The position numbers were made by a program, and so were the translations under genes. Under the pieces are notes generated by a model. The model saw nothing but the letters and a program-made list of their open reading frames with translations. It was not told the DNA's origin and made no database searches. Shown here in pieces: positions 19,573 through 53,050 of a DNA stretch of 64,000 nt (the first letter of the stretch is position 1; each line of letters opens with the position of its first letter). The stretch is from Phycisphaeraceae bacterium (GTDB lineage: Bacteria > Planctomycetota > Phycisphaerae > Phycisphaerales > Phycisphaeraceae): the NCBI GenBank assembly GCA_963674705.1, contig OY771506.1:3552001-3616000 (forward strand), written 5' to 3'.

Positions 19573-19600
19573 TTGCTTTCCTAATTTAACAGTCTATGGT
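19573..19600 (+). promoter_or_regulatory. putative promoter of leader RNA copy 1
   Basis: TTGCTT-N16-TATGGT; equivalent boxes precede all four copies. Confidence 0.6.
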
Positions 19601-19606
19601 GTAGGC

Positions 19607-19748
19607 AGTGTTGGAGCCAACGCAGTGCTAGATCGGCTCCGGCACCGGATGACTGGATAAAGGGCAGGCGCTCAGGCGGCAGGCCCGTTAACAAGTAAGC
19701 CGATGTGGTTCACCACCTTAGGGTGCGGAACCACATCGGCTTTTTTTT
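19607..19748 (+). ncRNA. structured leader/attenuator RNA, copy 1
   Basis: Conserved in four copies; covarying stems; terminator GCCGATGTGG..CCACATCGGC-T8. Confidence 0.8.
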
Positions 19749-19841
19749 GTCGATTTTCCTGACCGTTCAGGATGCCCACTAAGCAAACAATCTCTTGGAT
19801 GGGCGGCGTAAATGACATTTGAACACTTTAAGGGATAGACC

Positions 19842-20120
19842 ATGACCACGAAGAGCACACTGGATATCAGCCCATTGGGTACCGACAGCCGCTGGGAACA
19901 TATCGGGGAGAATCAGGGCTGCGCCAATCACGATCACGACCTCGTGCACGAATTGAGCCGCAGGCTGGATTCAGTCTGGCGATATGACCAGTTCATCGCT
20001 AACGCGGAAGGTCGTGAAGCACTTCAGGCCTGCTGGCGTGAATTCAAGGAACAGGATATGCGGAGCATCGTGCGGTTGAAGGAGATTTTGAAGGATGAGA
20101 TCAAGAATGGCTGCTTCTAA
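19842..20120 (+). CDS. small helical hypothetical protein, possibly ferritin-like
   Basis: DHDLVHELSRRLDSVWRYDQFIANA; RBS AAGGGA. Confidence 0.7.
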   Translation: MTTKSTLDISPLGTDSRWEHIGENQGCANHDHDLVHELSRRLDSVWRYDQFIANAEGREALQACWREFKEQDMRSIVRLKEILKDEIKNGCF

Positions 20121-20161
20121 AAGACGCATACCGATCTTTGCGACGATCGAAGAAGGATCTA

Positions 20162-20581
20162 ATGAATGAGAACCAACTAACGATGGCACAACAGGTGGCT
20201 CGTGCGGCCAGCGCTTACCAGTTGCGACGAACCGGACATGCCCCGAAAGCGGTGTCGGTCGTCCTGAGTGAAGGAACGCTGGTAATCACGCTTCACGGTG
20301 CTCTTACGCCGGCAGAACAGGCCTTGGCCATGAACCCCGAAGGCGCCGCACAGGTGCAGGATTTTCACCGCCAGCTCTTCGCCAACTCCTCGGATTCGCT
20401 CAGGCAGGAGATCAAGCGTATCACCGGGGTGGATGTGCGGGAAGCGGCATCGGAAGTCGAAACTTCCACCGGGACCGTGGTACACGCCTTTACCAGCGGC
20501 ACGATGGTCCAGGTGTTCCTGATGGCTGAAAACCTGACCGCGGAAACATGGAACGAAACTGTGGACATTAGGCAACCCTGA
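20162..20581 (+). CDS. DUF2294 (MpsC-family) protein
   Basis: RTGHAPKAVSVVL...LHGALTPAE...IKRITGVDV pattern. Confidence 0.8.
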   Translation: MNENQLTMAQQVARAASAYQLRRTGHAPKAVSVVLSEGTLVITLHGALTPAEQALAMNPEGAAQVQDFHRQLFANSSDSLRQEIKRITGVDVREAASEVETSTGTVVHAFTSGTMVQVFLMAENLTAETWNETVDIRQP

Positions 20582-20697
20582 CACCGGAGACCTGAGGATG
20601 GCGACGTATTCAATTGAACGACCTTGCGATACAGCCGGAATCCACGCGTGGATTGACGGCCCCTGGGAATCGCGCCGCGCTGCCATTTGTGCCGGTC

Positions 20698-20905: not shown

Positions 20906-22480
20906 ATGATGGACCAACTCAATCAGCTTATGGTCGAGTTCTGGCAATATTTGCCGTATCTCGTTGGGGGCATTGCCGTCTTGGTGGTCGGTTGGATCGT
21001 GGCCTGGCTTGCAGGGAGTCTCACCCGCAGGTTGGTCAGTCGGACGCGCGTGGAGGACCGGCTCGGCGCGGCTATTAACAAGCAGTCCGGCGAGCGGACG
21101 CGACTTGCCCATTGGTTGGGCACATTGGTGTTTTGGATCATCCTGGCGATAACTCTGATCGGCGCATTGTCTGTCTTACAGCTGGCAGCGATTTCTGACT
21201 CGCTTCGTCAGGCCGTCGATGAGGTATTGCGGTATGTGCCGCAGTTGATTGCCGCGGGCATTTTGCTGCTGGCGGCTTGGCTCACGGCTGAAGTCCTGCG
21301 CTGGATCATCGTGAAGGCGTTGGAAAAGGCCAACCTGGGGCATCGACTCGGTGCCGCAGGCGGCAGCGTAACCAGAGCAGTGGGGCAGGAGTCGTCTAAA
21401 GTCACCGTGTCGCCGGAGGGTCAAAGCAGTGCAGTGACTGATTCCCATGACCTCGCTAAGACAATTGGCGATGTCGTGTACTGGACGGTGTTCCTCCTGT
21501 TCCTTCCCGCGATTCTTGGAGCTTTATCGCTCCAAGGCATTCTGGGACCGGTGCAGAGCATGGTGGATAAAGTTCTGGCCTTCCTACCCAACATCCTGGT
21601 CGCTGCGGTCATCTTGGGATTGGGCTGGTTCTTCGCGAGCATTCTCAGGCGGGTTGTCATTGGAATTCTGACCGCGTTCGGGGCAGACCGGTTGGGCAAT
21701 CGGATCGGGCTGAAGGCCGAGGATGGGAGGTCGGGGTCGATTTCTCACGTCGTAGGTTGGACGGTGTTCCTCCTGATATTGATTCCAGTGTTTCTCGCCG
21801 CACTTGATGCGTTGCGGTTGCAGTCGCTGACCCAGCCGACAAGCGAGATGCTCGCCCGAATCCTCAACGCGGTTCCGTCCATCTTCGCGGCCACTCTGGT
21901 GCTGGTGATCGCCTACGTCTTAGGCCGTATTATCAGCCAATTGGTAACGAAAATTCTGGAATCGGCGAAGTTTGACGCCTTGCCGGTAAAGCTGGGGCTG
22001 GGCGAAATGACGCCACAGTCGCAATGGGCGCCATCGAAGATGGCAGGCAGCCTGGTGTTGATCGCAATCCTGTTGTTCGCGACGATGACAAGCCTGGAAC
22101 TGCTGGGATTCGTGCAACTCTCGGCCATAATGACGAGTTTTCTGTATCTGGCGGGGCGCATTCTGCTGGGGCTGACGATCTTCGCGCTGGGGTTGTTTCT
22201 GGCCAGGATCGTCGGGCGCGCCATCACCAGTCGGGAGCACGAGTATGCATCTATCTGGTCATTGACGGCGCGAATTGCGATCCTTTTCCTAGCCGGCGCC
22301 ATGGCACTTCGCCAGATGGGCCTGGCGGACGAGATCATCTCTTTGGCTTTCGGCTTGACGTTTGGCGCCATGGCGGTAGCGGCGGCCATCGCCTTCGGGC
22401 TGGGCGGGCGCGACCTCGCGGGGCGGAAGCTTGAAGAATGGGAACAGCACCTTCGTGAGAGGCAGGAAGAGTCCAAATGA
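20906..22480 (+). CDS. mechanosensitive-channel TM-helix repeat protein (CmpX/MscS-like)
   Basis: Repeated YLP/YVP/FLP/AVP TM-helix units; C-terminal AIAFGLGGRD. Confidence 0.8.
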   Translation: MMDQLNQLMVEFWQYLPYLVGGIAVLVVGWIVAWLAGSLTRRLVSRTRVEDRLGAAINKQSGERTRLAHWLGTLVFWIILAITLIGALSVLQLAAISDSLRQAVDEVLRYVPQLIAAGILLLAAWLTAEVLRWIIVKALEKANLGHRLGAAGGSVTRAVGQESSKVTVSPEGQSSAVTDSHDLAKTIGDVVYWTVFLLFLPAILGALSLQGILGPVQSMVDKVLAFLPNILVAAVILGLGWFFASILRRVVIGILTAFGADRLGNRIGLKAEDGRSGSISHVVGWTVFLLILIPVFLAALDALRLQSLTQPTSEMLARILNAVPSIFAATLVLVIAYVLGRIISQLVTKILESAKFDALPVKLGLGEMTPQSQWAPSKMAGSLVLIAILLFATMTSLELLGFVQLSAIMTSFLYLAGRILLGLTIFALGLFLARIVGRAITSREHEYASIWSLTARIAILFLAGAMALRQMGLADEIISLAFGLTFGAMAVAAAIAFGLGGRDLAGRKLEEWEQHLRERQEESK

Positions 22481-22652
22481 GAATCGGATTGGATACAGGG
22501 AGACAGATGCCGCAGGGCACGGATGGATCGTGAATGAGCCGATCCATCCGCCGACGACGATCGAAGCCGCGACCGAGATTCAATGAAATACTCCAACGGG
22601 ATGAATCCTGTTGGCTTGATCGAGACCAACGAACCGTATTAAGGAACATGAA

Positions 22653-23483
22653 ATGACCCGTAACCCGATTCAGATCGTGACCCTGACCGCCGCCCTTGGC
22701 TTGCTTGGCGTATTCGCCATGGGTCAGACTCAAACTACCAGCCCGCCGGACATCGGTGCTGGACAAGGATACAAGTCCGCCGACGATTCCACCGTGAAGC
22801 CCGGCAAGCACGCTGATGGCATGAGGGAACATATGAAGGGCATGATGGAGAATATGCCGGATGACACGAAGATGCGCTGTCAGATGCAGATGAACATGGT
22901 GGTCAGTCCCAGCGACCCGAGCGCCATCCTGGCCCTGAAGGATCAACTCCTACTCACCACAGACCAGACCACGGAGTTGGATGCCATCATCAAGGAGGCG
23001 CGGACCCAAGCGGTTGCCGTGCTCAATGCCGACCAGCAAACAATGTTGAACACTCTGCCGCAGACACCTCATACGATGAAAGTTCTGCACGAGAAAATGA
23101 TCAGCCAGATGCAACCGATGAGGACAACGACACCGAGCAACAAGCCAATGGATTGTCCCGTGATGCAGATGATGCGGGATCAGGCCTCGTCAACGACGCT
23201 GCCAATATCCGGCTCACCGTCTATGGCGCCGACTGATAAGACAGCCATTGAACCCAAAACCGCCACCGATGTCTTGGACAGCGGTGACGCTAACACGGCC
23301 AAGGCGGCTACGCTCCTCAGCCAACTCGAGCAATACACCACCGATAACAAGATCGATCTTGCCGAGAAGACACTCAACCAACTCGACGGGATGGAAGGAT
23401 TGCTCCCCGCATCACTCCAGAGCCAGATCGAGACCGCTCGGACGGCACTGAAAGCGAAACAAGCGGCGGCAACCATGTACTAG
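22653..23483 (+). CDS. secreted Met-rich protein with LTxxQ (Spy/CpxP-like) motifs
   Basis: Signal peptide; LLLTTDQ, VLNADQQ; C-terminal domain shared with the next gene. Confidence 0.65.
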   Translation: MTRNPIQIVTLTAALGLLGVFAMGQTQTTSPPDIGAGQGYKSADDSTVKPGKHADGMREHMKGMMENMPDDTKMRCQMQMNMVVSPSDPSAILALKDQLLLTTDQTTELDAIIKEARTQAVAVLNADQQTMLNTLPQTPHTMKVLHEKMISQMQPMRTTTPSNKPMDCPVMQMMRDQASSTTLPISGSPSMAPTDKTAIEPKTATDVLDSGDANTAKAATLLSQLEQYTTDNKIDLAEKTLNQLDGMEGLLPASLQSQIETARTALKAKQAAATMY

Positions 23484-23605
23484 TCGTGATACGAACTTGA
23501 TTCGACGGCCTCAGCTTAACCTAGATGTCGCATGACTACGCGTCGTAATACTCAGATTTTTCGCGCATGTTACTGAAACACATTAACCGCAAAGAAACAA
23601 GGAAC

Positions 23606-24202
23606 ATGACAATGTCTCGCCACCTGATTGTGACCGTGATTCTAGCCACCACCATGCTTGTCGGCTGCGGCCGCGAGGAACCCAAGTCGACACCGCAGAC
23701 CAAAGCCGCCGCATCTCGCAGCGCTGTGGAGGATGCGGCCGCTAAGGCCGCAATCGATACAAAGAAGGCAGCGGACGCCAAAATCGCTGCTGATACAAAA
23801 ACGGCCACTGCCGTAAAGGTGGCTGCTGATCGGGCCGCAGCCGACACAAAGAGCGCGGCAGACGCAAAGATCGCCGCGGATCTCAAGGCCGCTGAAGTTG
23901 CCAAGGCTGATGCCGATCAGGCAGCCGCCGACGCCAAAGCCGCACTCGATCAAAAGACGGCCGCCGATGTTAAGGCCGCCGCAGAGGTTAAAGCGGCCTC
24001 TGATCAAGCTACAGCAGAGGCGAATTCGCTTCTCACGCAGGTACAGCAGTACATCAAGGACAACAAGTACGAGCTTGCGGAGCAGACACTCGACAAACTC
24101 GACGGCATGAAAGGCTCGCTACCGGTATCGCTCCAGAACCAGATCGAAACCGCACGGACAGCCCTCAAGGCAAAACAAGTAGCCGGAATACTGCCGAAGT
24201 GA
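23606..24202 (+). CDS. Ala/Lys/Asp-rich lipoprotein
   Basis: Lipobox LVGC; AADAKIAAD repeats. Confidence 0.75.
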   Translation: MTMSRHLIVTVILATTMLVGCGREEPKSTPQTKAAASRSAVEDAAAKAAIDTKKAADAKIAADTKTATAVKVAADRAAADTKSAADAKIAADLKAAEVAKADADQAAADAKAALDQKTAADVKAAAEVKAASDQATAEANSLLTQVQQYIKDNKYELAEQTLDKLDGMKGSLPVSLQNQIETARTALKAKQVAGILPK

Positions 24203-24287
24203 TTTGGATAAGTGTTGGCAAATACTGCTTGCTTTGATTCATCTTGGGCGTAAGAACTGCCCAGATACCAACCTTGGAAGACACACC

Positions 24288-25172
24288 ATGAAGGACCATG
24301 ACATCCAACGAGATCCAGAAAGCATATTAACGGCTCCTAATAATGGATCAAGAAGGTCCGTATCGGACAATCCACCTCAGACGCCGAATGCCGGATCGCA
24401 TCACGCGATTAAGCAGCGGATGACGGAGGCCGAACAGCGGGCTATACAGCTGTGTAAATTAGCCGTCGAGCTGAAACAAGACAATGCGCGGGATCGCCGG
24501 GACCTGGCCCGGGTTCTGCGTGACGACCTCCAGCAGACGCTGGTGGCGGCTTACCTGTGGGTCAGGATGACAAGGACGAAGGACACGGAGCAAGCATTGA
24601 AAGAGGCCCTTGAACCCGTGGAAGAATTGATCAGTCAAGGCCTTGTCACCCTGCGCTCGCTGGCCAGTCAATTGAGCCCTCAGCTTCTCTATGAGAGCAG
24701 CTTCGTCTCGGCCCTGGCGTGGCTGGCTCGTGAGGCGCAGGCAATGCATGGCATGGAGGTCAGCATCAGTGCAGATCCACATGTCGAGCCAAGCACTCAA
24801 GAGGTGCGTTCCGTCCTGTTCCGCGGCGTTAAGGAACTGCTGTTCAACAACGTCAAGCACACACCGGTACGGACCATATCGATCACGGTCATACGGGCTG
24901 TGGATAAGCTGCGCGTGACCGTGGATGGCCGGGGCGTAGGTTTTAATCCCACCGGATCTGAAAACACAGCCGACGGAGGTTTCAGCTTGATTTTGATACG
25001 TGAATGCCTGACCTATCTGGGTGGGAGCCTGGAGTTGAATGACACTCCCGGGCATGGGACCCGGGCCGAGTTTGTAATCCCGCAAGAACCACGAGAACAC
25101 AAAACAAGCATGCCTAGATTAGTAGCTAAAGCCTGTGTGGCGCAAAACAGTACACATCATTGTAAGGAATAA
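24288..25172 (+). CDS. HisKA_3/HATPase_c histidine-kinase-like protein lacking the catalytic His
   Basis: LARVLRDDLQQ, ELLFNNVKH, GRGVGF, GFSL..IRE, PGHGT. Confidence 0.7.
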   Translation: MKDHDIQRDPESILTAPNNGSRRSVSDNPPQTPNAGSHHAIKQRMTEAEQRAIQLCKLAVELKQDNARDRRDLARVLRDDLQQTLVAAYLWVRMTRTKDTEQALKEALEPVEELISQGLVTLRSLASQLSPQLLYESSFVSALAWLAREAQAMHGMEVSISADPHVEPSTQEVRSVLFRGVKELLFNNVKHTPVRTISITVIRAVDKLRVTVDGRGVGFNPTGSENTADGGFSLILIRECLTYLGGSLELNDTPGHGTRAEFVIPQEPREHKTSMPRLVAKACVAQNSTHHCKE

Positions 25173-25176
25173 AGAT

Positions 25177-25719
25177 ATGACGGATCACAACTCGGTCGTA
25201 GGTATTTTCGAATCGCACAAAGCCGCCGAAGACGCAGTTAAGGAATTACAGCGCAGCGGAATGAACATCAAGAAACTGTCACTCGTCGGAAAGGACTACC
25301 ACACCGATCAGCACGTGGTCGGGTACTACAACACGGGCGACCGTGTGATGTACTGGGGCAAGCAGGGCGCCTTCTGGGGCGGCATCTGGGGGCTGCTGTT
25401 CGGGTCGGCGTTCTTTTTTATCCCCGGGATCGGGCCGTTGGTAATTGCCGGCCCGCTGGTCAGCATGATCGTGGGTGCGATGGAGGGCGCCGCGGTTGTT
25501 GGTGGTCTTAGCGCTGTGGGTGCGGGGCTGTACAGCATGGGCGTCCCCAAGGACAGCATCATCAAGTACGAGACCGCCATCAAAGGCGGCAAGTTTGTCC
25601 TGGTCTACCACGGCACGCATGAAGAAGTCGAGAAGACACATGTGATCCTCGATCGTGCCGAAGCCGTGGAAACATCGTTGCACTTGTATGAGCCGGAGAC
25701 AAGCGCGTTGACACAATGA
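25177..25719 (+). CDS. general stress membrane protein (DUF1269/YflT-like)
   Basis: VVGIFESHKAAEDAVKEL; GAFWGGIWGLL; IPGIGP; MGVPKD. Confidence 0.75.
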   Translation: MTDHNSVVGIFESHKAAEDAVKELQRSGMNIKKLSLVGKDYHTDQHVVGYYNTGDRVMYWGKQGAFWGGIWGLLFGSAFFFIPGIGPLVIAGPLVSMIVGAMEGAAVVGGLSAVGAGLYSMGVPKDSIIKYETAIKGGKFVLVYHGTHEEVEKTHVILDRAEAVETSLHLYEPETSALTQ

Positions 25720-25815
25720 CCGCATAGGGTGCATCACTGTCACCCGTCCAGGATCAGGACTTGAACGTGTAGAAACTGGTATGAACGGATTCACCCAATG
25801 TAAGGAGGCAGCATC

Positions 25816-26112
25816 ATGTTGGTGTTATCCCGAAGAAGCCATGAATCGGTGATGGTCGAAAACCCTGACGGTTCGGGTTCCACACTCAAAGTCACAGTAT
25901 TAAGGTCCAGGGATGGCGAGGTCACACTGGGCTTTGAAAGCCCGGTCCGACTCGCCATTATCCGAAAGGAGGACTGGAACCGGATCCGTAACAATGTCCT
26001 GGAAAACTATCCATCCAATTTCCCTCGTCGCAAGAAATTACGGACAACGGTCCGCCGCGACGTTCAAAGCGACCGCCTCTTGTACAAATCATATACATCG
26101 AAAGGAAACTGA
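25816..26112 (+). CDS. csrA: carbon storage regulator CsrA-like protein
   Basis: MLVLSRRSHESVMV...VTLGFESPVRLAIIRKE. Confidence 0.8.
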   Translation: MLVLSRRSHESVMVENPDGSGSTLKVTVLRSRDGEVTLGFESPVRLAIIRKEDWNRIRNNVLENYPSNFPRRKKLRTTVRRDVQSDRLLYKSYTSKGN

Positions 26113-26114
26113 TC

Positions 26115-26267
26115 ATGTTATGGACTATTGCAGTCATTACCGTCATGTTATGGTTACTTGGATTACTCACCTCTCACACGTTCGGCGGTGTTCTTCACAT
26201 CCTGCTTGTGATCGCATTGGTCACGGTGGTTATTCAAGTAATCCAGAATCGAAGAATATCGGCGTAG
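26115..26267 (+). CDS. lmo0937-family small membrane protein (not in the ORF track)
   Basis: MLWTIAVITVMLWLLGLLTSHTFGGVLHILLVIALVTVVIQVIQNRRISA; RBS AAAGGA. Confidence 0.85.
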   Translation: MLWTIAVITVMLWLLGLLTSHTFGGVLHILLVIALVTVVIQVIQNRRISA

Positions 26268-26300
26268 AACGGTTATACACATATTTAATGGGCATGTGAT

Positions 26301-26507
26301 ATGAAGACAAACAAGAAACAATCAGAGACATCCATGCGTTCAGCCTCGCGTCAGGAGTATCACTTCCCGCAAGCCGGAGTCCTCAAGCCATCTCACGACG
26401 ATATCAGCCGTCGCGCATATGAGATCTATATAAGAAGTGGCTTCATTCAGGGCCGGTGTCAGCATAACTGGCATCAAGCGGAGTGCGAACTGCAAAGGAA
26501 CAAATAG
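26301..26507 (+). CDS. DUF2934 domain protein
   Basis: ISRRAYEIY...NWHQAECEL. Confidence 0.8.
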   Translation: MKTNKKQSETSMRSASRQEYHFPQAGVLKPSHDDISRRAYEIYIRSGFIQGRCQHNWHQAECELQRNK

Positions 26508-26658
26508 AAGGAGCAAAAACCGGCGATAAGTCAGCCTATGGCACCCGAGGCAAATGTCGGTCTACAACCAGGCGGAAACGGTCGCCGGCCTTATGGGGAG
26601 AAGAGGCCGGTGCCTCCCGCCTGGTGAATACTTGAAGTGTATAGAAAGGAAACCCCTT

Positions 26659-26823
26659 ATGGGACTGATTCTGCTCATCATCGTGATTCTATTGCTTGTT
26701 GGGGCTCTGCCCAGGTGGGGGCACAGCCGGAATTGGGGGTACTACCCCAGTGGTAGCTTAGGACTGGTTCTTATGATCCTGGTTGTGCTGTTACTGATGG
26801 GGTATCTGCCCAGGGGTTTTTGA
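26659..26823 (+). CDS. DUF3309 family small membrane protein
   Basis: LLVGALPRWGHSRNWGYYPSG. Confidence 0.88.
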   Translation: MGLILLIIVILLLVGALPRWGHSRNWGYYPSGSLGLVLMILVVLLLMGYLPRGF

Positions 26824-26877
26824 ACGACCAACCCCGTATCAGATCCGATTCTCAACATGCCCTAATAAAGGTGACCT

Positions 26878-27114
26878 ATGAAAACCATATTGATTCTGTT
26901 TGTTCTAATCATTGTAGTCGGTGTGGGCTTGGGCTATTACCGGGGCTGGTTCAATGTATCTTCAGACAACACTGAGGGCACTCACAACGTTACCGTGTCG
27001 GTGGACGCCGGCAAGATCAAGGCCGACAAGGACGAAGCGGTAGACAAGGTACAAGACCTGGGACGCAAATCGGAGGACAAGGCCGAACCAACGCCCAAGA
27101 CGGGGCAGGAATAA
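26878..27114 (+). CDS. small membrane-anchored hypothetical protein
   Basis: TM helix followed by GYYRGWF...VDAGKIKADK. Confidence 0.7.
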   Translation: MKTILILFVLIIVVGVGLGYYRGWFNVSSDNTEGTHNVTVSVDAGKIKADKDEAVDKVQDLGRKSEDKAEPTPKTGQE

Positions 27115-27275
27115 ACCGCTCCAGTACAGAAGTACCACAGGCAAGATTGGATCAACGGATCCACGGCCACCCCAAATAAAAACTCTGCACTAACGTAGAT
27201 CGCAGGATACTGAATGAAACCGGTGAGTCTGGCTGACCAGGCCCCCTGTCAAACAAGCGAAGAAGTAAGCAAACT

Positions 27276-27992
27276 ATGAAATCAACTCTCACCATCATGG
27301 CGACGGGTACCATCCTTGTTGCCGCTGGATACACCTCGGCCATGTCCCTGTCTGGCGACGTAAATATGGTTCACTCGCCCGTCTCCGTACAGGATGGCGA
27401 CCGGACCAACAACCATAAGGCACTGCTCTTCACTGAGCAGAACAATACCGCCCTTGGCGGTAACCTTAAAGTCGAGGCTTACCTCCCAGGCAAATATGAT
27501 GGCTTGGCTGCCACGGCAGGCCGTACACTCGCCGCGGGACGCACGGTCAGCAGCTACATGCTCCATGCCGATGTCGATTCTGATGGCGTTACGCCTGTAA
27601 TGATGACAGGCAGCATCAGCTTCAACGAGAAGATCCTGGGTGTGATCTTTGGGAACTTCGATGCCAGCGACGCCCTCTTGGGAGCCCCAGGCACCTCATA
27701 CGAGTCAACCAGCGGTCACGGGCTGGACTTCAACGATCCCAATGGTGATATGTTCCGCATCAGCAAGAACCGCATGCGGTTTGACTTCAGCTTCACTGTC
27801 AGCGGCATCACCGACCAGATCCGTATCATCACCGCAGGCAATACCACCCCGTCGGATTCGAGCGGGAACCCGATCCCTGAGCCGGTTACAACGACGCTGT
27901 TGGCCATGGGTCTTGGTGGCTTGACACTGCGCCGCCGGCACATCGAAGGATCGACAAAACGTTTGAACGTGACTCGTACAGCGCCTACATAA
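27276..27992 (+). CDS. PEP-CTERM sorting-domain protein
   Basis: Signal peptide; IPEPVTTTLLAMGLGGLTLRRR. Confidence 0.85.
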   Translation: MKSTLTIMATGTILVAAGYTSAMSLSGDVNMVHSPVSVQDGDRTNNHKALLFTEQNNTALGGNLKVEAYLPGKYDGLAATAGRTLAAGRTVSSYMLHADVDSDGVTPVMMTGSISFNEKILGVIFGNFDASDALLGAPGTSYESTSGHGLDFNDPNGDMFRISKNRMRFDFSFTVSGITDQIRIITAGNTTPSDSSGNPIPEPVTTTLLAMGLGGLTLRRRHIEGSTKRLNVTRTAPT

Positions 27993-28024
27993 AAAAAGGG
28001 ACAGCCAACTCAAAGGAGGACGGC

Positions 28025-28267
28025 ATGTACAAAATGAAACATTTATCCCCTGGGTCAAGAACTCACGGACGGCAGCCACACACTTCGGGAGTGATGTCCT
28101 ACCGCCAGATCGCTGAGGTCCTCGAAGAGCTCGAAGGCGAACCGATCAGCGCGGACCGCGTGGCACATATCTGCAGGGAAGCCGAATGGAAAATCGTGGA
28201 TGCGGTAGAAGCAGACCCTATGCTCGGCAAAAGATTCAGGTCGGTACTAGATGTGAACACCAATTGA
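28025..28267 (+). CDS. small protein resembling a stand-alone sigma70 region-4 HTH
   Basis: MSYRQIAEVL...ISADRVAHICREAEWKI; RBS AAGGAGG. Confidence 0.55.
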   Translation: MYKMKHLSPGSRTHGRQPHTSGVMSYRQIAEVLEELEGEPISADRVAHICREAEWKIVDAVEADPMLGKRFRSVLDVNTN

Positions 28268-28357
28268 GGTGTTCGCGGCATCTGAGTATGTATATCTCAA
28301 ATGTAAAGTAGTTTGCTGTCAATGTTCATGTCCGTCGCACAACGTTTGGAATTTACC

Positions 28358-28576
28358 ATGAGTATTCAAAAAATAAGTGGGTTCGTCCTTTTTATAATTG
28401 GTGTAATCCTGTTGATCAACGGGATGGACACGTCAGGCTCTGTGACTGATCGGCTGAGCAACATATTTACCGGGCACTTCACTGAAGCCACGACGTGGTA
28501 CATCATTTCTGGTATCGCTTCTGTGGTCGGGGGCCTGATGCTGTTTTTGCTCGGTAGCCGCAAGGCCCTGGTGTGA
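28358..28576 (+). CDS. DUF3185 family membrane protein
   Basis: SVTDRLSNIFTGHFTEATTWYIISG. Confidence 0.75.
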   Translation: MSIQKISGFVLFIIGVILLINGMDTSGSVTDRLSNIFTGHFTEATTWYIISGIASVVGGLMLFLLGSRKALV

Positions 28577-28715
28577 GTTTCAAGTCGATCCGTCGCGATC
28601 GGTCGGACGGTGCGGATTGGTCGCCGGAAACGTATCCGGCGGCATGGATTCAAGACAAAAATCGCTACCCGGACCTTGTCCGTGTGGCGTCAGAATGACT
28701 TTGAAAGGTCATGCT

Positions 28716-29264
28716 ATGAAAAAGTATCATATGTCATTAATGTTAGCTGGCATGATCGTTTTGCTGGCACTAAGTGCCTGTTCCACAGCGCCCAGTTCGG
28801 TGGCAGGCAAAGCCGACATCGAATCAGATGCAGCGGTGGCGCTGGCCAAGGCTAAGAAAGCCGATACCACTCTGATCAAGGTATTCGATTCGGCCGCAGG
28901 TTACGCGGTGTTCCCATCGGTCGGAAAAGGGGCCATTGGGGTTGGAGGAGCGTACGGTAAGGGCGTGCTCTACGAGCGAGGCGTCGCCGTGGGCTACTGC
29001 GACCTCAGCCAGGCATCGATCGGCTTGCAACTCGGTGGGCAAGCGTACACGGAGATCATCGCGTTTGAAACCAAAGCGGCCGTTAAGACCTTCAAAGAGG
29101 GCAAGTTCCGCTTCGACGCCCAAGCCTCGGCCGTGGCATTGAAGTCAGGCGCTGGGGCGAATGCCAAGTATACAAACGGTGTGGCTGTCTTCACGATGGA
29201 CGAGGCGGGCCTGATGTATGAGGCCTCCATCGGCGGACAGAAGTTCAGCTACCAGGCCAAGTAA
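28716..29264 (+). CDS. YSC84/SYLF lipid-binding lipoprotein
   Basis: Lipobox LSAC; AVFPSVGKGAIGVGGAYGKG; GLMYEASIGGQKF. Confidence 0.85.
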   Translation: MKKYHMSLMLAGMIVLLALSACSTAPSSVAGKADIESDAAVALAKAKKADTTLIKVFDSAAGYAVFPSVGKGAIGVGGAYGKGVLYERGVAVGYCDLSQASIGLQLGGQAYTEIIAFETKAAVKTFKEGKFRFDAQASAVALKSGAGANAKYTNGVAVFTMDEAGLMYEASIGGQKFSYQAK

Positions 29265-29544: not shown

Positions 29545-29572
29545 TTGACTTGTACGCATTGACCGCTATTAT
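29545..29572 (+). promoter_or_regulatory. putative promoter of leader RNA copy 2
   Basis: TTGACT-N16-TATTAT. Confidence 0.65.
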
Positions 29573-29578: not shown

Positions 29579-29722
29579 AGTCAAGGAGTCAATATTTTAC
29601 ACGTATACGACTCCAACTTCGGATGACTAGCTAAGGGGCAGGTCGCAAACGGCGACAGGCCCGTTGAAGAGTAAGCCGATGTGGTTCAGCACTAAAGGTG
29701 CCGTGCCACGTCGGCTTTTTTT
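29579..29722 (+). ncRNA. structured leader/attenuator RNA, copy 2 (most divergent)
   Basis: GGAGTC/GACTCC; CGGATGACTAG; GGGCAGGTCGC..GCGACAGGCCC; terminator followed by T7. Confidence 0.8.
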
Positions 29723-29743: not shown

Positions 29744-29926
29744 ATGACTGGCTCTAGAACAATGACAAGAGGATTGGCAACCCGACAAATCCGAAACCTG
29801 CCGGTAATCGATACCGCAGGTGCCGTGATCGGTATGATCTCGCTTGGGGACCTGGATGCCCACGACCTCGGCGGCCAGCTGTTGGAGAATCACTATCTGA
29901 AGAAGTATCTCTACGCCCGCAATTAA
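29744..29926 (+). pseudogene. C-terminal fragment of a CBS-domain protein
   Basis: RQIRNLPVIDTAGAVIGMISLGDL; only one partial CBS repeat. Confidence 0.65.
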
Positions 29927-29989: not shown

Positions 29990-30637
29990 ATGAACAAAGA
30001 TAATCATCCCAAATCAACTAACACCGTTACTCAGATCAACACGAATGCGTCTTCGCAGAAAGCTCTGGACGGTTGGGCGACCGACGGTGGAACAATGAAA
30101 CGGATTAAGACAGCCGGTCGACCTTCTGGTACGACGCACACGATCAATCCCGCTGTTCTTAAATCACTAAACAAGCAGATCCAGCACGAGCAGTGCAACG
30201 CACACACCTATCAGGCCGTGTCTTTGTACTTCGGGAGCATCAATCTTCATGGGATTGCGGCATTTATGGAGCATCAGGCCGAAGAGGAAAGGCAACATGC
30301 GTGGAAGCTCATCCGGCATGCAGTTGACCGAAAGGCGCAGGTGGAGCTCGGGTCTATACCAGCTCCTGATGTGGACTACGCTTCACCCTTGGAAGCGGCT
30401 GTATCAGTTGCGGAACTTGAGCGAACCACGTCACAGATGATCAATCAACTATGTCAACTGGCCCGTGACGAGGGCGACTATGCCTTGGAGGTCCTGCTTC
30501 ATTGGTATATCACAGAGCAGGTTGAAGAGGAGAAGTGGTCACAGGAGTTGGTGGAACTTATTGAGAGACTTCAGGACAGGCCCGGTTCGCTATACATGTT
30601 AGACGACGTATGGGGCAAACGCCTCATAGAAAAATAA
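29990..30637 (+). CDS. ftn: non-heme ferritin with N-terminal extension
   Basis: LNKQIQHE, QAEEERQHA, WYITEQVEEE ferroxidase residues. Confidence 0.9.
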   Translation: MNKDNHPKSTNTVTQINTNASSQKALDGWATDGGTMKRIKTAGRPSGTTHTINPAVLKSLNKQIQHEQCNAHTYQAVSLYFGSINLHGIAAFMEHQAEEERQHAWKLIRHAVDRKAQVELGSIPAPDVDYASPLEAAVSVAELERTTSQMINQLCQLARDEGDYALEVLLHWYITEQVEEEKWSQELVELIERLQDRPGSLYMLDDVWGKRLIEK

Positions 30638-30692
30638 CACCCATACACGGTAATAACATGCACCTGGTTGGAGACCCGCCCGAGAACCAACA

Positions 30693-31316
30693 ATGATAAA
30701 GCGCCTAATATCTATATTCCTTCAGGGATTGATCGCCATCATGCCGCTGGCGGTCACTGTATTTATCATTCTGTGGATGGTATCAGCGGCGGAGCGGACC
30801 TTCAGCGTCGCCGTCAATTGGATTCTGCCTGATAGATGGTATACGCCCGGTATGGGTGTGGCTTGTGGTGTCGCCTTGGTTTTCGGGATCGGCCTGCTGG
30901 TCAATATCTGGGGCGTGCCGCGTCTAATCCACTTGGCCGAATCGTTCATTGCCCAGATACCGCTCGTAAAGACGATCTACGGGGCCGTGCGTGATCTGCT
31001 CGGATTCTTCAGTAAATCAGGCGGACTCGGTGACGGCAAGGTCGTTATGGTCTCGATCGGGAGCACGGATATGCGGGCTATCGGATTGCTGACACGAGAC
31101 GGTTTGGATGACCCACAGTTGGGCCTCCGTGGCAAAGGATATGTTGCCGTGTATCTCCCCATGAGCTACCAGATAGGCGGCTTCACCGTATTCGTGCCAC
31201 GCGAGCGTGTAGAGCTCTTGGACATGCGGATCGAGGATGCCTTGCGCTTTATTGTAACCGCGGGCGCAAAGAGTCCGACGTCGACCATGTCATCGAATAG
31301 CGCACCTGATGAGTGA
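30693..31316 (+). CDS. DUF502 domain membrane protein
   Basis: FLQGLIAIMPL; IPLVKTIY; VYLPMSYQIGGFT. Confidence 0.85.
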   Translation: MIKRLISIFLQGLIAIMPLAVTVFIILWMVSAAERTFSVAVNWILPDRWYTPGMGVACGVALVFGIGLLVNIWGVPRLIHLAESFIAQIPLVKTIYGAVRDLLGFFSKSGGLGDGKVVMVSIGSTDMRAIGLLTRDGLDDPQLGLRGKGYVAVYLPMSYQIGGFTVFVPRERVELLDMRIEDALRFIVTAGAKSPTSTMSSNSAPDE

Positions 31317-31734
31317 GGAAAGCAAAATGTCTTCCACATCACCGACAAGTTCGACTGCCGTCGTGGATATTCCGGATAAGTACGGTATCACACGACTCAA
31401 CAGAGCCACCTGGAGCAGGGATCCACGTGCAATAAAGTTCCTGCTGGCTAAGGGGGCCAATATCAATGGCCTGGGCTACCACGGGCACACCTTGCTCCAG
31501 AGCGCAGCTATCAGCGATGACTTGCCTTGGGCCCGATTGCTTCTGGATTACGGTGCAGATCCAGATGTTTTAGATCCGGGCAACGGACTGTCTGCATTGA
31601 ATTATGCAATACAAGCCGGACACAAGGAGATTGTTGAACTACTGCTTGCCCATGGCGCTAAACGAGGGCGATCGGTGCCGCACGATCAACCATTGCCAGC
31701 AGTTGATTCCCAGACACAAAGATTATCTGAATGA
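31309..31734 (+). CDS. ankyrin repeat protein
   Basis: LLAKGANIN, LLDYGADPD, GHKEIVELLLAHGA. Confidence 0.85.
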   Translation: MSEESKMSSTSPTSSTAVVDIPDKYGITRLNRATWSRDPRAIKFLLAKGANINGLGYHGHTLLQSAAISDDLPWARLLLDYGADPDVLDPGNGLSALNYAIQAGHKEIVELLLAHGAKRGRSVPHDQPLPAVDSQTQRLSE

Positions 31735-31991
31735 GCAGTCACAATCATGACTTCCAAACCCGAGCGAGAGAGATGCCTTCGTTGGTTCACTATCTTGCTG
31801 AACATCAACAGAGCATTACCGGGCCCAGGACCTTGGCCCGGACGTTTACCGATTATCGGCGACTTCTGATATCCGGAGCGGTCAAATTGGTCAGATATGA
31901 ACATGAGCAAATCCTAAGTATGAACCCAGACAAAGTGAACTGGATCGACGCCTATGAATGGTGGAAGAGTAGTTCTGAAACAATGTCTTGA
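31731..31991 (+). CDS. hypothetical protein
   Basis: ATGA overlap with the upstream stop. Confidence 0.45.
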   Translation: MSSHNHDFQTRAREMPSLVHYLAEHQQSITGPRTLARTFTDYRRLLISGAVKLVRYEHEQILSMNPDKVNWIDAYEWWKSSSETMS

Positions 31992-32066
31992 CGACATACG
32001 AGATAGGCCCGCCTCAGTATTTGGGGTGATGCCGTTTGAATCACAGAGAGGTGGTGAGCATAAGCT

Positions 32067-33491
32067 ATGCGCTTATTCCTAATCAATCCATCCAACCCGT
32101 TGGTGAGCTTGGCTCAACGCAGTCGTTGGCGGAAGTACCGTGTATGGAAGCCGCTGGGGCTTATGGTGATCGCAGCTCTGACGCCTGAAGCGGAATGGGA
32201 TGTGACAATCATAGACGAGAATCTCGGTATGCCGGACTATGCAAATCTACCCCGGCCCGACCTTGTTGGCATCACCGCATTTACCTCGCAGGCACCTCGG
32301 GCTTATCAGATCGCGGCCATATTCCATAACTTGGATGTACCCGTCATCATGGGCGGCATCCACGCATCGATGTGTACCGATGAGGCGCTCGAGTATGTGG
32401 ACTCGGTTGTACAAGGTGAGGCAGAATCTATCTGGCCGTCGGTGCTCGTCGATGCCCAACACGGCATGCTGAAACGGCATTATGTTGGCGAGTCGGCCGA
32501 TCTGGCATCCGTACCACCGGCTCGCCATGACCTGTTGACGCATGGCTACGCATTCGGCTCCATCCAAACCACGCGCGGCTGTCCTTTGAATTGTCACTTC
32601 TGCAGTGTGTCCGCTTTCAATGGACATCGTTATCGCCATCGCCCAATAGGTGATGTGGTTGATGAGCTTGCGATGATACCAGAACGTATGGTTCTGGTAG
32701 TGGATGATAACTTGATCGGTACACGCGATGAGCACATCGTGCGTGCCAAGAAGCTATTCCGTGCAATAATCGACGCCGGTATAAAGAAGAAGTGGATATG
32801 CCAGGCCACTATCAACCTTGCTGACGATGAGGAATTGCTCCAATTGGCAAAACGTGCGGGCTGTATCGGTGTGTTTATCGGCTTCGAAACAACCTCAGAC
32901 GAGGGGCTGGTTGAATTGGGTAAACGCTACAACATCCTCAAGGGTGGCGATCTGCGAGCCAGTGTCAAGCGCATCCACCGTTACGGCATTTCGATCGTGG
33001 GGTCCTTCATCATGGGGCTGGACAGTGACCGCGTAGGCGTCGGCCGATGTATCGCCGAGACCGCCAACCACTACGGTGTAGATTTACTCAACCCCGTATA
33101 CATGACTCCGTTGCCCGGAACGCGCCTCTGGGAGAGTATGAATAACCAGCAGCGCATCGCCGCAAACCGATTCCCGGAGGAATGGAGATATTATACTCTT
33201 AGCTTTCCTGTTGCGCGGCATCATAACTTATCATGGGAGGAACTTATAAACGAAATGAATGACTGCTGCCGAAAGTTCTACTCACCCAAGGCAATTTTGC
33301 GACGGATGGTCGCTAGCATATCACACTGGAGAAACCCGCTAACTATGTTTGTGGCAAACTTGTCTTACCGGCGGAATTGGCGTTCTGATTGCCAAGCGAT
33401 GTGCAATACTGACTTAAGCCGCGGGTTTAAATGGAATGGTAGTGCGGTCCAAACCCTTTTCGAGTGTCAAATATCTATATTGTTGGCATAA
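32067..33491 (+). CDS. B12-binding radical SAM protein
   Basis: KPLGLMVIAAL; GGIHAS; TRGCPLNCHFC; VDDN; TPLPGT. Confidence 0.88.
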   Translation: MRLFLINPSNPLVSLAQRSRWRKYRVWKPLGLMVIAALTPEAEWDVTIIDENLGMPDYANLPRPDLVGITAFTSQAPRAYQIAAIFHNLDVPVIMGGIHASMCTDEALEYVDSVVQGEAESIWPSVLVDAQHGMLKRHYVGESADLASVPPARHDLLTHGYAFGSIQTTRGCPLNCHFCSVSAFNGHRYRHRPIGDVVDELAMIPERMVLVVDDNLIGTRDEHIVRAKKLFRAIIDAGIKKKWICQATINLADDEELLQLAKRAGCIGVFIGFETTSDEGLVELGKRYNILKGGDLRASVKRIHRYGISIVGSFIMGLDSDRVGVGRCIAETANHYGVDLLNPVYMTPLPGTRLWESMNNQQRIAANRFPEEWRYYTLSFPVARHHNLSWEELINEMNDCCRKFYSPKAILRRMVASISHWRNPLTMFVANLSYRRNWRSDCQAMCNTDLSRGFKWNGSAVQTLFECQISILLA

Positions 33492-33577: not shown

Positions 33578-33900
33578 ATATCGACCCGGGATGCCTGGTT
33601 TTACTTGCTTTCCTAATTTAACGGTCTATGGTGTAGGCAGTGTTGGAGCCAACGCAATGCTAGATCGGCTCCGGTACCGGATGACTGGATAAAGGGCAGG
33701 CCGCTCAGGCGGCAGGCCCGTTAACAAGTAAGCCGATGTGGTTCACCACCTTAAGGTGCGGAACCACATCGGCTTTTTTTGTCGATTTTCCTGACCGTTC
33801 AGGTGCCCACCAAGAAACAACACTCTTAGGCGGGCGGTGTAAACCACGTTCGAACACTTTAAGGAATAGACCATGACCACGCAGAGCACATCGAATATCA
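33578..33900 (+). repeat. second copy of the ~324-bp promoter-leader-start cassette
   Basis: Matches 19546-19869. Confidence 0.9.
33639..33780 (+). ncRNA. structured leader/attenuator RNA, copy 3
   Basis: Promoter TTGCTT(33605)-N16-TATGGT; same helices; terminator followed by T7. Confidence 0.8.
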
Positions 33901-34430
33901 ATCTATTCTCAATGTCTCCGATAGCTCATGGTGCGAAGTATGCCGTCGTCAAGGCGGTCAGTGAAAACAGATGCACGTCCGATCGCGTTGAAGATCTCTG
34001 CGTCGATTTGCTCGTGAGTTGCTCCGCTGAATCGGCAGAAGCACAACGGCTGACGCGGGTGATAGAAGAACTGATCAGCGGGGCGATGTCCGGAGCCGGC
34101 TCATACAACCACACGGTGGTTTATGGCGCGGTTCGTGGGTCGATCCGGGGCGCTTGTGAGATCGGCCTCGACCCGGTATCCGCCGCGATAGTAGCAGTTG
34201 AGACCGCAGCGACCGCATGGACCGACGAAGGCAATCCCCTGTTGATCGAGGCTGCTGTAAGAGCGGCGATGTCTGCCGCGAAACAGATCGGTCCACCTGT
34301 TCAGGAGGATCTACATCAGTGGCTCAGCGAGCGCATACCACTGGCCGCCTGTTGTTTGAACCTAGCCAGCCCGGGGACTGGCTCTGAGGTAGAGCTAAAT
34401 AGCGAAAACCCCGTAATCCAAGGAGACTAG
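33873..34430 (+). CDS. hypothetical Ala-rich helical protein
   Basis: RBS AAGGA; first gene of the chaperone operon. Confidence 0.65.
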   Translation: MTTQSTSNINLFSMSPIAHGAKYAVVKAVSENRCTSDRVEDLCVDLLVSCSAESAEAQRLTRVIEELISGAMSGAGSYNHTVVYGAVRGSIRGACEIGLDPVSAAIVAVETAATAWTDEGNPLLIEAAVRAAMSAAKQIGPPVQEDLHQWLSERIPLAACCLNLASPGTGSEVELNSENPVIQGD

Positions 34431-34432
34431 AA

Positions 34433-34873
34433 ATGCTTCCCACGTTACTGACCAAACGACCCTATTTTAACGATCCAACCGACTTCCTCCGCCATGAAAT
34501 AGGACGGTTCTTCGGGCCGGTCGTCAGTGAGGGGGGCGAGGCCCGTCCCGACCTGGTTGGCGCCTACCCCGTCGATATCCGTGAGATGGACGACGTGATC
34601 GTTGTAGAGGCCGAGGTGCCCGGCTTCGATAAGAATGAGATCCAGGTCAGCCTCGAACGCGGCATGCTTACCATCACGGGCGAGCGCAAGGCCGAGGAGT
34701 CCAAAGGCGAGAAATACCTGACCGAAAGGCGTTACCTGCGTGTTCAACGACGCTTCCAACTCCCCGCGACCGTCTATGAGTCAAAAGTGGATGCGACGTT
34801 GAAGAACGGCGTACTGACGCTCGTGCTTCAGAAGACGACCGAGGCTAAGCCCAAACTCATCGCGATCAAGTGA
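34433..34873 (+). CDS. Hsp20/alpha-crystallin small heat shock protein
   Basis: YPVDIRE, EVPG, LTITGER, ATLKNGVLTL. Confidence 0.92.
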   Translation: MLPTLLTKRPYFNDPTDFLRHEIGRFFGPVVSEGGEARPDLVGAYPVDIREMDDVIVVEAEVPGFDKNEIQVSLERGMLTITGERKAEESKGEKYLTERRYLRVQRRFQLPATVYESKVDATLKNGVLTLVLQKTTEAKPKLIAIK

Positions 34874-34944
34874 GTACATGAGGGGGACCCGCCGTGGGGC
34901 CGTGGGACGCCGCCGCCTCATGCCTTATCCACGGAGGGCGAACT

Positions 34945-35250
34945 ATGAAAACGAAACTGCGTCCACTCGGCGACCGCTTACTCATCCAACGGTTGGAGAC
35001 CGAATCGACCACCAAATCCGGCATCGTGCTACCTGACAGCGCCAAAGAGAAGCCGCAGCAAGCCAAGGTCATCAGTGTCGGATCGGGCAGGCTGTTGGAC
35101 GACGGCAAACGGGCACCCATGAGCGTTAAGAAGGGCGACACGATCATCCTCAGTAAATGGGGTGGCACGGAAATCAAACTCGACGGCGAGGACTGTGTCA
35201 TCATTAAGGAAGACGACGTTTTAGCGGTCGTTGTAGGACGGCTGTTGTGA
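34945..35250 (+). CDS. groES: co-chaperonin GroES
   Basis: LRPLGDRLLI, SGIVLPDSAKEKPQ. Confidence 0.95.
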   Translation: MKTKLRPLGDRLLIQRLETESTTKSGIVLPDSAKEKPQQAKVISVGSGRLLDDGKRAPMSVKKGDTIILSKWGGTEIKLDGEDCVIIKEDDVLAVVVGRLL

Positions 35251-35291
35251 TCAGGGCATCTACCCGCAATTAACAATCAAGGCGACTATCC

Positions 35292-36932: not shown

Positions 36933-36979
36933 CTCACACCCCCGGGGGTTAAAATCTTGGGATATGCACAATAGGAGGA

Positions 36980-51495: not shown

Positions 51496-51652
51496 GTTGC
51501 TACGCCGGCATCACCCGCGCGGTGGCTGTGCTGATCGGCGTGAGATAACCTACCAGATAGTATATCAACTAAGCGGGATAAGCATTTTCGTAGTGGAAGA
51601 GCAACGCACTTCAAACTGTGTAGTACAGGCAGGCTCTATTTACCCCACACAT

Positions 51653-52211
51653 TGCCCCCCTCTGGTTCTTTGATCCAGTTGCTATGAGAGAATCGGTGAG
51701 TATGTAGATGCTTGCTGAGCCGTAGGGAGGGGCGCAGCCCCGACCGGAGGTTCAGGTGCGCTGGGCATGGATGAGTAACAATGGGGTGCAAGTCCCCAGC
51801 GGGGCCTGGCCCCCCAAACGGCCACGCACCTTCTCCACCGTGCGACGCCGCCGCTCGGGGTCTACAAGTTTGGGCGGGAGGCTTCCCGAAGGATCTGGAT
51901 GTCCAACGCCTGGTCCGCCACCAGCTTCTTCAGCCGCGTGTTCTCCTTCTCCATCTCCTTCATCTGCTTGGCCATCACCGGGTCCATCCCACCATACTTC
52001 GTCCGCCACCGGTAGTACGTCTGCTCGCTGATGCCCAGCTGCCTGCAGACCTCCGGCACCTTCAGTCCCTTGCCCAGCTCAATATCCGCCTGGCGGAGCT
52101 TGGCCACGATCTGCTCGGCGCTGTGTCGCTTCTTCATCGAGGAATCCTTTCCGGCCCGAGGCCGGCTGGATTCTCTCATATTCCCTGGATCAGGTTTTTA
52201 GGAGGGGGTCA
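51653..52211 (-). mobile_element. internally deleted IS3-family element (orfA intact at 51862-52137; orfB mostly lost)
   Basis: Imperfect terminal IRs TG.CCCCC...TGATCCAG...TATGAGAGAATC at both ends; OrfA MKKRHSAEQIVAKLRQAD...TYYRWR. Confidence 0.85.
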
Positions 52212-52524
52212 CACTCTCGGAAGCGCAAATAAATACCCAAAGCCACACCTATATCGGTTAAGTAGGGGATTGTCCTATATCAGATTAGCTGAAAAACCGC
52301 CCCTCTGCGTCCCCGATCCATCCCGTATGCATCGAAATACACAAGCCCCGCCTAGACCCTTCGTCGGTGATCTGCTTGTCCTTCTCTACCCCGGCCCTTC
52401 CAGGATGCAAGCCGCACGGAACCGATTAGTCCCGCCGGCATATGGGTTCTCCCAATAATTGAACGAGCAGATTCCCCCTTGGTAAGCCCCCTTTGTTTTT
52501 CATAATAAATGCAAATGGAGGCCA

Positions 52525-52685
52525 ATGATGTGCCCACAGAAAGCCTGGAGCGACAAAGATGAACGGCAATCAATATAGACACATCAAGCAGAGCCAGATA
52601 CAGCGGGGCCGCAGCGAGAGCAAGGCCGAGGAGGTCGCCGGGCGGACCGTCAACAAGCACCGACGCGAAAACGGCAGAGCCGCTA
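52525..52685 (+). pseudogene. frameshifted stress-type gene (AWSDKDERQYxHIK family)
   Basis: Joining frames gives QKAWSDKDERQ/YRHIKQSQIQRGRSESKAEEVAGRTVNKHRRENG; CAAT duplication at 52567-52574. Confidence 0.6.
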
Positions 52686-52906
52686 GATGTCCGGCCACCA
52701 TATGTATATGTGCATGTTGTTGGTTTGGATCGATCGCGGGGCGGATGAGGACTGGGGACAGATGTGCTAATGGGGCTTCTCACACACGTTCTAACAAATT
52801 ACGACCGCATCTCTGCTTCTCTGCTCATGGGGGCGAATCTATCCGAAATCTAACGGGATTGCCCGATGTCGCTTGCGTTCCCAAATTTACCTGCTAGAGT
52901 GCAGGC

Positions 52907-53050
52907 GTTATCGGAGTAGAACTCAGTAACATAGCTGCTCCGGCATCGGATGACTAGGTAAGGGGCAGGTCGCAAGAGCGGCAGGCCCGTTGACAAGTAA
53001 GCCGATGTGGTTCACTACCTTAGGGTGTGGAACCACATCGGCTTTTTTTT
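52907..53050 (+). ncRNA. structured leader/attenuator RNA, copy 4
   Basis: Promoter TTGCGT(52873)-N16-TAGAGT; GGAGTAG/CTGCTCC; conserved core; terminator followed by T8. Confidence 0.8.

Follow-up and report, generated by a model that had tools for sequence, protein, structure and literature searches.

What controls the stress operons that follow four copies of one structured leader RNA in a Phycisphaeraceae bacterium? The question is raised by a stretch of 64,000 nucleotides (nt) of its genome (assembly GCA_963674705.1, labelled G000; contig OY771506.1, positions 3,552,001 to 3,616,000), which we refer to as the window. A first-pass annotation had proposed that the copies are terminator/antiterminator attenuators controlled by a riboswitch ligand or by a protein. 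Our analyses show that the leaders belong to a real, conserved Planctomycetota RNA family that has no entry in the Rfam catalogue, and that the MpsC/DUF2294 protein family (PF10057) is tightly linked to this RNA across Planctomycetota. We consider it probable that the copies act in cis as transcription attenuators under the control of an MpsC/DUF2294 protein.

The leader RNA and its two folds

Each of the four window copies (Table 1) consists of a 5′ hairpin, a core and an intrinsic terminator followed by seven or eight T residues. The positions and three-part anatomy first assigned to them were all borne out by the sequence, as was the absence of one C from the apical stem of copy 1. When folded in isolation, the cores form the predicted long interrupted hairpin, with the CCG of the terminator 5′ arm in its base. 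Whole leaders fold far better than shuffled sequences (z −5.9 to −6.8; none of 200 shuffles was equal). Two parts of the earlier description stood less well. The 5′ hairpin is present in the window copies but is only partly conserved, with GGAG...CTCC arms in 45 of 139 listed family copies. Similarly, a −35/16-nt/−10-like motif can be seen by eye before all four copies, but only that of copy 2 passes a consensus scan, and the window promoters are weaker than had been implied. Copy 3 is a recent duplicate of copy 1 (95% over 124 nt). Profile and covariance model searches found six copies in the genome, namely those of the window plus C1:2014911 and C1:2016857; besides these, only their reverse strands scored above 16 bits genome-wide. 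In copies 1, 3 and 4, the 3′ arm of the 5′ hairpin could instead pair with the start of the core to give a 4-bp hairpin, a possible anti-antiterminator; the spacer between 5′ hairpin and core is longer in most family members than in these three copies.

An exact pattern search of metagenomes returned at least 123 stretches, and our metagenome copy counts rest on the matches listed. In genome contigs, 23 matches included 11 true copies, all labelled Planctomycetota; the other 12 were without the 3′ half and were dropped as chance matches, as were, for the same reason, most matches outside G000 and G004 in the first pattern search. Viral contigs gave no exact-pattern match. A terminator and U-tract end 137 of the 139 listed copies that have enough sequence. 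For the alignment, L167, L182 and L184 were removed by eye, eight copies cut by contig ends and two without a clear U-tract were excluded, and thinning at 90% identity left 120 sequences. In this alignment, pairing in the antiterminator fold amounts to 93.6%, and 12 of 22 pairs show two-sided changes; none of 500 shuffles and none of the slid controls reached as high. For the terminator, pairing is 92.7%, and 15 of 19 pairs show two-sided changes. Non-canonical G-A/A-G swaps were seen at two positions, one with 44 GA and 41 AG among the 120 sequences and the other with 95 and 10, a pattern that fits an RNA internal loop. These leaders, which we call class I, share a conserved GGAUG and purine-rich, highly conserved internal loops, and a promoter motif of at least 8/12 lies within 120 nt upstream of 72 of 136 family copies, compared with 14.6% of shuffles.

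An attC site or other DNA palindrome was ruled out by the G-U pairs and G-A swaps, which indicate RNA. A triple A/G-U/C-A/G covariation tying the antiterminator to the terminator was weak in the 120-sequence alignment and is not claimed. Back-to-back leader pairs on opposite strands occur in L021, L031, L074, L083 and L119, some with a type B MpsC gene (see below) between them. Rfam 15 gave no match at the gathering score in the window and none at E up to 10 around copy 3, in agreement with the initial view that this is not a known riboswitch class; nor was there an Rfam match over the class II or Bacillota leaders described below (13 loci).

MpsC proteins and the genes around the leaders

PF10057 comprises two types, A and B. 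Type B has the invariant residues G-R-G-P, K68, R71 and H-x-D-x-S, all of which type A is without. MpsC is present in 36 of 401 genomes of the phylum, and type A in nine. The RNA model was run on 391 of the 401, and a strong match (above 60 bits) was obtained in 12: the nine type A genomes, G083 (type B only), G094 and G413. MpsC thus occurs in ten of 12 RNA-positive genomes, and type A only in genomes that carry the RNA (9/9). In each of the eight type A genomes besides G000, the type A gene has a leader no more than 1.2 kb upstream, and in G000 itself all five MpsC genes and all six leaders occupy the same two islands. Type B genes were found upstream of 26 of the 56 listed metagenome copies with 700 nt of upstream sequence (23 divergent, 3 tandem). 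Two MpsC loci were seen in viral contigs, and at one of them a class I leader immediately precedes a type B gene. PF10057 was not detected in any of 151 genomes from the phylum to which a Deltaproteobacteria metagenome-assembled genome (MAG) belongs. DUF2294 had at first been listed only as cargo of the leaders; we now regard it as a candidate regulator.

The domain architecture of type B points the same way. Receiver (PF00072) fusions make up 48 of 119 long type B homologues, and fusions to PAS, PilZ and MarR occur too, which is the layout of a signalling output domain. The receiver-MpsC protein of the window has the acidic pair, Asp, Ser and Lys of a receiver in its translation, as judged from receiver-domain motifs. 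Both MpsC types are predicted to fold as alpha-beta-beta-alpha-alpha-beta-beta (pLDDT 81 and 94). Solved-structure and fold searches gave no clear relative for either type, and a protein atlas search gave no usable match for MpsC. Among RNA-binding proteins of the KH type (RbfA, Era, KhpB), whose type II KH fold was considered for MpsC, RbfA scored Z 5.0-5.7 (root-mean-square deviation 3.9-6.3, 89-99 aligned) and Era Z 5.1; unrelated proteins score higher.

Downstream genes were surveyed behind the 63 listed metagenome copies with 450 nt of downstream sequence, with the leader strand alone scanned. Like the window copies, most of these homologs lie 5′ of co-directional genes, recognisable ones being found behind at least 48 of the 63 (24 with type A MpsC and 24 with other Pfam families). 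Type A comes first behind 23 of the 63, and its start is typically 66-130 nt after the leader core. The other families are CsbD, DUF3309, transglycosylase-associated, Hsp20, YflT, DUF892, BON, ice-binding proteins and a hibernation-factor-like protein, and ferritin, GroESL and a channel protein can be added from the window; we take these families to be markers of a general stress response. A Pfam search of the window proteins recovered the DUF2294/channel, ferritin, Hsp20-GroESL and beta-barrel gene sets that had been placed behind the four copies. One could also imagine the leader as a constitutively terminated, trans-acting small RNA, for example one that titrates MpsC as CsrB titrates CsrA, with downstream genes that have promoters of their own. 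Such an RNA would be expected to have its own promoter-like motif, a strong terminator and several copies per genome, as is the case here. However, the close co-directional genes, a conserved base helix that competes with the terminator, and a consensus scan (a weak test) that found no promoter between copies 1-4 and their first genes together make a small RNA improbable.

In genomes without type A, weak model matches behind type B genes proved to be a related leader, class II, which has its own promoter, the same loop core and an altered base helix, and which was found at eight of 21 type-B-only loci. A class II model built from these eight copies found no copy in G000 or the other eight type A genomes, and the RNA class appears to track the MpsC subfamily. 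PEPCK or PEPCK-like genes lie behind five of the eight, one of them after a type-A-like MpsC; the remaining copies precede a weak carbonic anhydrase match, DUF4914 and argininosuccinate synthase. Five further class II copies (E up to 0.01; two weaker matches, in G163 and G041, are omitted) were found before PEPCK (three), an MpsC-PEPCK fusion and carbamoyl-phosphate synthase (CarB). At L321 (G052 C69), a type-A-like MpsC domain is naturally fused to PEPCK directly behind a class II leader.

The class I model was also applied to three Bacillota loci; its two best matches in 25 kb, at two of these loci, lie directly behind DUF2294. The Acetoanaerobium leader precedes a major facilitator superfamily (MFS) transporter (36.1 bits, E 3.8e-8, the sole match in a 2.63-Mb record), and that of Anoxybacillus precedes a bicarbonate permease (31.6 bits). 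A second, longer structured leader with promoter and terminator is present upstream of the DUF2294 gene on the Anoxybacillus plasmid (L274:3790-3984); it scores 17.9 bits with the model and has no Rfam match. In two genomes of the actinomycete phylum (L287, L288), there is a different conserved leader ~280 nt upstream of MpsC, without a U-tract terminator.

The conserved GGAUG of class I, together with csrA genes behind copy 1 and behind the L076 leader, might suggest that CsrA binds the GGA of the base-helix 5′ strand and tips the switch to termination. CsrA sites present GGA in single-stranded loops, whereas here the GGA is paired within a helix. Nor is it kept across the RNA family: class II and the Anoxybacillus leader have lost it, as have some class I copies (L232, L069, L035) that were detected independently of the search pattern. 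We therefore regard control by CsrA as very improbable.

Predicted default termination and its candidate regulator

In all four window copies, the base of the antiterminator forms once it has been made (probability 0.96-1.00 four bases before the terminator is complete), and the finished terminator is favoured over the antiterminator by 8.4-10.9 kcal/mol. Based on this difference in stability, we predict that the default state is most likely OFF and that a stabilising factor turns it ON. When the base is held, folding leaves a shortened terminator stem that is set apart from the U-tract. The antiterminator base is predicted to last until the final terminator bases, so a kinetic read-through default can be envisaged, in which MpsC would act in the opposite sense, or type A, the gene most tightly tied to class I, would do so, by unfolding the hairpin to promote termination. 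This arrangement is hard to reconcile with a terminator that is 8-11 kcal/mol more stable, with the missing type B residues of type A, and with class II and Bacillota leaders that mostly have type B alone, and we think it improbable.

From the computed structure, energetics, gene context, co-occurrence and domain fusions, we infer binding, direction, signal and the role of type A as follows. Transcription would start at the promoter-like motif, and the ~57-nt hairpin, with its short helices and purine-rich internal loops, would fold first. The more stable intrinsic terminator would then invade the base of this hairpin, resulting in termination by default. Active type B MpsC may bind the G-A/A-A internal loops near the base and hold the hairpin, which would keep the residual terminator stem off the U-tract and allow read-through into the general-stress operons. 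The input in the window is likely phosphorylation of receiver-MpsC by the HWE kinase, and since both are encoded behind copy 4, positive feedback would be expected. The stand-alone type B gene at C1:2014350 of the studied genome may encode a metabolite sensor. Type A would be made only on read-through and does not have the conserved basic residues; its most likely role is to modulate type B, as a feedback inhibitor or as a partner subunit, and not to bind the RNA.

The alternative that the first-pass annotation had placed beside protein control is a ligand-binding ON riboswitch, responding for example to CO2/bicarbonate, an ion or a signalling nucleotide, with the MpsC genes as mere members of its regulon. 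Highly conserved purine-rich internal loops, the overlap with the terminator, class II leaders before CO2-using enzymes and two RNA-positive genomes without an MpsC match are all what a riboswitch would predict. However, the RNA is one hairpin without branches, its top covarying pairs give no sign of a pseudoknot or junction, and type B is usually upstream or divergent, outside the control of the RNA, as a regulator would be. Receiver-MpsC fusions and the tracking of RNA class with MpsC subfamily are likewise not expected of a riboswitch, and a single ligand would not account for the unrelated gene sets under class I and class II. A riboswitch is therefore unlikely in our view, and the evidence favours a protein. 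The underlying proposal of an attenuator heading stress operons is supported by covariation, energetics, co-directional genes and the absence of an Rfam match.

Several observations weigh against operation of the switch by MpsC. In the 120-sequence alignment, the base helix, the only part of the hairpin that excludes the terminator, is conserved (89.4% paired) but barely covaries, partly because the search pattern fixed its core. Matches found by the model without the pattern make up for part of this weakness: read by eye and without a statistic, L232 has a G-C to A-U change in the base helix, L266, L231 and L228 have three different two-sided changes in the next helix, and the Acetoanaerobium leader has a C-G to U-A change. 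The RNA occurs without an MpsC match in G094 (89% complete) and G413 (97% complete), and the type B match of G161 contains a stop. Further, related genomes are not independent, and a shared mobile island would itself give co-occurrence. The MpsC models gave no clear match to an RNA-binding fold, the best score (Z 6.9) being to unrelated proteins, and the MpsC domains are not net basic. Lastly, no leader match was found at a Staphylococcus plasmid MpsC locus or at any of 20 MpsC loci in 10 genomes that share the phylum of a Nocardia genome, indicating that the coupling of RNA and MpsC is not universal.

Genomic setting and likeness to known systems

Table 1. Leaders, promoter-like motifs and associated genes in the window.
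Feature	Position	Strand	Basis or remark
tRNA-Leu(GAG), then phage-type integrase	7751..9400	+	likely left end of four-leader island
Promoter-like motif, copy 1	19573..19600	+	−35 19573-19578, 16 nt, −10 19595-19600; 8/12, below scan cut-off
Leader copy 1	19607..19748	+	covariance model R1, 95.9 bits; core start 19646
Copy 1, 5′ hairpin	arms 19613-19618 and 19635-19640	+	
Copy 1, antiterminator hairpin; terminator; U-tract	19646-19702; 19699-19740; 19741-19748	+	
92-amino-acid gene	19842..20120	+	no Pfam family; first gene behind copy 1; behind leaders in L003 and L004 too
Type A MpsC/DUF2294 gene	20162..20581	+	PF10057; without the GRGP, K/R and HxDxS residues invariant in type B
Rest of gene run behind copy 1	20906..29264	+	co-transcription presumed
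Sigma-70-type promoter, copy 2	29545..29572	+	10/12, promoter consensus scan
Leader copy 2	29579..29722	+	antiterminator 29620-29678, terminator 29675-29715, U-tract 29716-29722; 99.8 bits; core start 29620
Deletion scar behind copy 2	29744..29926	+	comparison with sister loci L037 and L039
Ferritin-like, DUF502, ankyrin and B12-binding radical SAM genes behind copy 2	29990..33491	+	Pfam
Promoter-like motif, copy 3	33605..33632	+	8/12, below scan cut-off
Leader copy 3	33639..33780	+	antiterminator 33678-33735, terminator 33732-33773, U-tract 33774-33780; 106.4 bits; core start 33678
185-amino-acid protein of no assigned family, Hsp20, GroES, GroEL and DUF2934 behind copy 3	33873..37219	+	Pfam
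Promoter-like motif, copy 4	52873..52900	+	by eye from sequence; not detected by scan
Leader copy 4	52907..53050	+	antiterminator 52944-53007, terminator 53001-53042, U-tract 53043-53050; 101.4 bits; core start 52947
Outer-membrane beta-barrel, first gene behind copy 4	53226..53777	+	PF13505
CheB-CheR-PAS-HWE histidine kinase	54416..57664	+	candidate signal input
Receiver + type B MpsC fusion, in copy 4 gene run	57606..58487	+	PF00072 + PF10057; candidate antiterminator

The gene run behind copy 1 encodes, according to Pfam, a mechanosensitive-channel transmembrane protein, a histidine kinase, YflT, CsrA (25816-26112), DUF2934, DUF3309, DUF3185, Ysc84 and small proteins. In the scar behind copy 2, only the start of a divergent type A MpsC gene is left, fused to the end of another gene found ~1.8 kb further on in the sister loci. 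Local duplications (70-75% identity) were seen among neighbouring small stress or hypothetical genes at 23295-24188, 11727-12415 and 26662-26814. The tRNA-Leu(GAG) gene and integrase at its start suggest that the four-leader stretch is an integrated mobile island; its right end was searched for and not found. The region 7751-10915, which also has an HTH_36 protein on the opposite strand and three 24-nt repeats spaced at 26 nt (10840-10915), resembles a mobile-element integration and replication module. Much of the island is shared with a relative, the Phycisphaeraceae MAG G004, and the type B gene that is divergent from copy 1 in G004 (L003) is absent from window positions 19060-19570, where tblastn found no remnant. 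Besides its two leaders, the second island of G000 (C1:2013000-2023000, L037) contains a divergent type B gene, a pair of type A genes and a GroEL-like gene. Its ankyrin and radical SAM genes are 64-95% like their window counterparts, and an insertion sequence with an integrase core is common to L037 and window 41603-42361. Elsewhere in G000, ~30 tRNA genes are arrayed on one strand (C1:622407-634804).

A full-text literature search, which most subscription papers lay outside, gave no description of the RNA or of RNA binding by MpsC/DUF2294/YbcI. The main text of a non-coding RNA screen of 50 genomes (PMC11109978) does not mention the RNA. The available parts of a review (PMC12591593) contain no mention of MpsC or Planctomycetes, and the available part of a 2026 preprint on a B. 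subtilis transporter (10.64898/2026.09.08.750065) leaves ybcI, mpsC, a leader and attenuation unmentioned. In S. aureus, as described in PMC6689103, MpsAB functions without mpsC, to which that paper assigns no role, a weak terminator lies between mpsC and mpsAB, and mpsA expression drops under 5% CO2.

If our proposal is correct, the widespread MpsC/YbcI family, wrongly named after a transporter subunit, would gain a function, two-component signalling would gain a new RNA-binding output domain, and Planctomycetota would have a first candidate mechanism for running a general stress regulon. The question of how CO2/bicarbonate uptake and carboxylation genes are regulated in bacteria also becomes testable, and as the RNA is short and the proteins are small, experiments in vitro or in a laboratory strain are feasible. 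Among the genes that follow class II and Bacillota leaders are PEPCK, CarB, a carbonic anhydrase-like gene, a DabB-like subunit and SbtA. We speculate, tentatively, that MpsC/DUF2294 joins CAT and ANTAR as a third widespread antiterminator domain that binds RNA, with an older role in CO2/bicarbonate regulation that was rewired to stress on mobile islands in some Planctomycetota. An equally tentative part of this idea is a stress regulon run by termination and not by a sigma factor, with kinase-receiver input, positive feedback through copy 4 and type A as an RNA-blind brake.

On balance, the system is likely a form of protein-dependent antitermination with a candidate new RNA-binding domain, and it can be compared with several known ones. 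S. aureus MpsC and B. subtilis YbcI are of the same Pfam family and neighbour CO2/bicarbonate uptake genes; unlike here, no RNA-binding role is proposed for S. aureus MpsC in the accessible portion of PMC6689103, and the staphylococcal plasmid locus is without a leader match. As in transcriptional ON riboswitches, a conserved aptamer-like hairpin overlaps the terminator in the 5′ leader; in contrast to them, there is no Rfam match, and the tight linkage to a single protein family suggests that the ligand is a protein. The closest parallels can be drawn from the available parts of PMC12591593. Similar to BglG/SacY/LicT and their ribonucleic antiterminator (RAT), a hairpin that is stabilised by protein (here, by proposal) partly overlaps an intrinsic terminator, termination is the predicted default, the candidate regulator gene lies beside or behind its target, and paralogues have matched RNA variants. 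However, the leader hairpin is ~57 nt with a different layout, compared with ~30 nt for the RAT. In addition, no CAT or PRD domain is found among the 68 window proteins, where the candidate binder is PF10057, and the targets are stress or CO2 genes instead of sugar uptake genes. Compared with the ANTAR proteins of the same review, the leader has one long, interrupted and conserved hairpin (its 5′ hairpin being variable) in place of two short hairpins, the output domain has a predicted alpha/beta fold and not a three-helix bundle, and the window receiver (57606-58487) is fused to PF10057, not PF03861. Nevertheless, like AmiR, NasR and EutV, the proposed regulator would be an output domain fused to a receiver or sensor, driven by a histidine kinase and serving a regulon of several operons.

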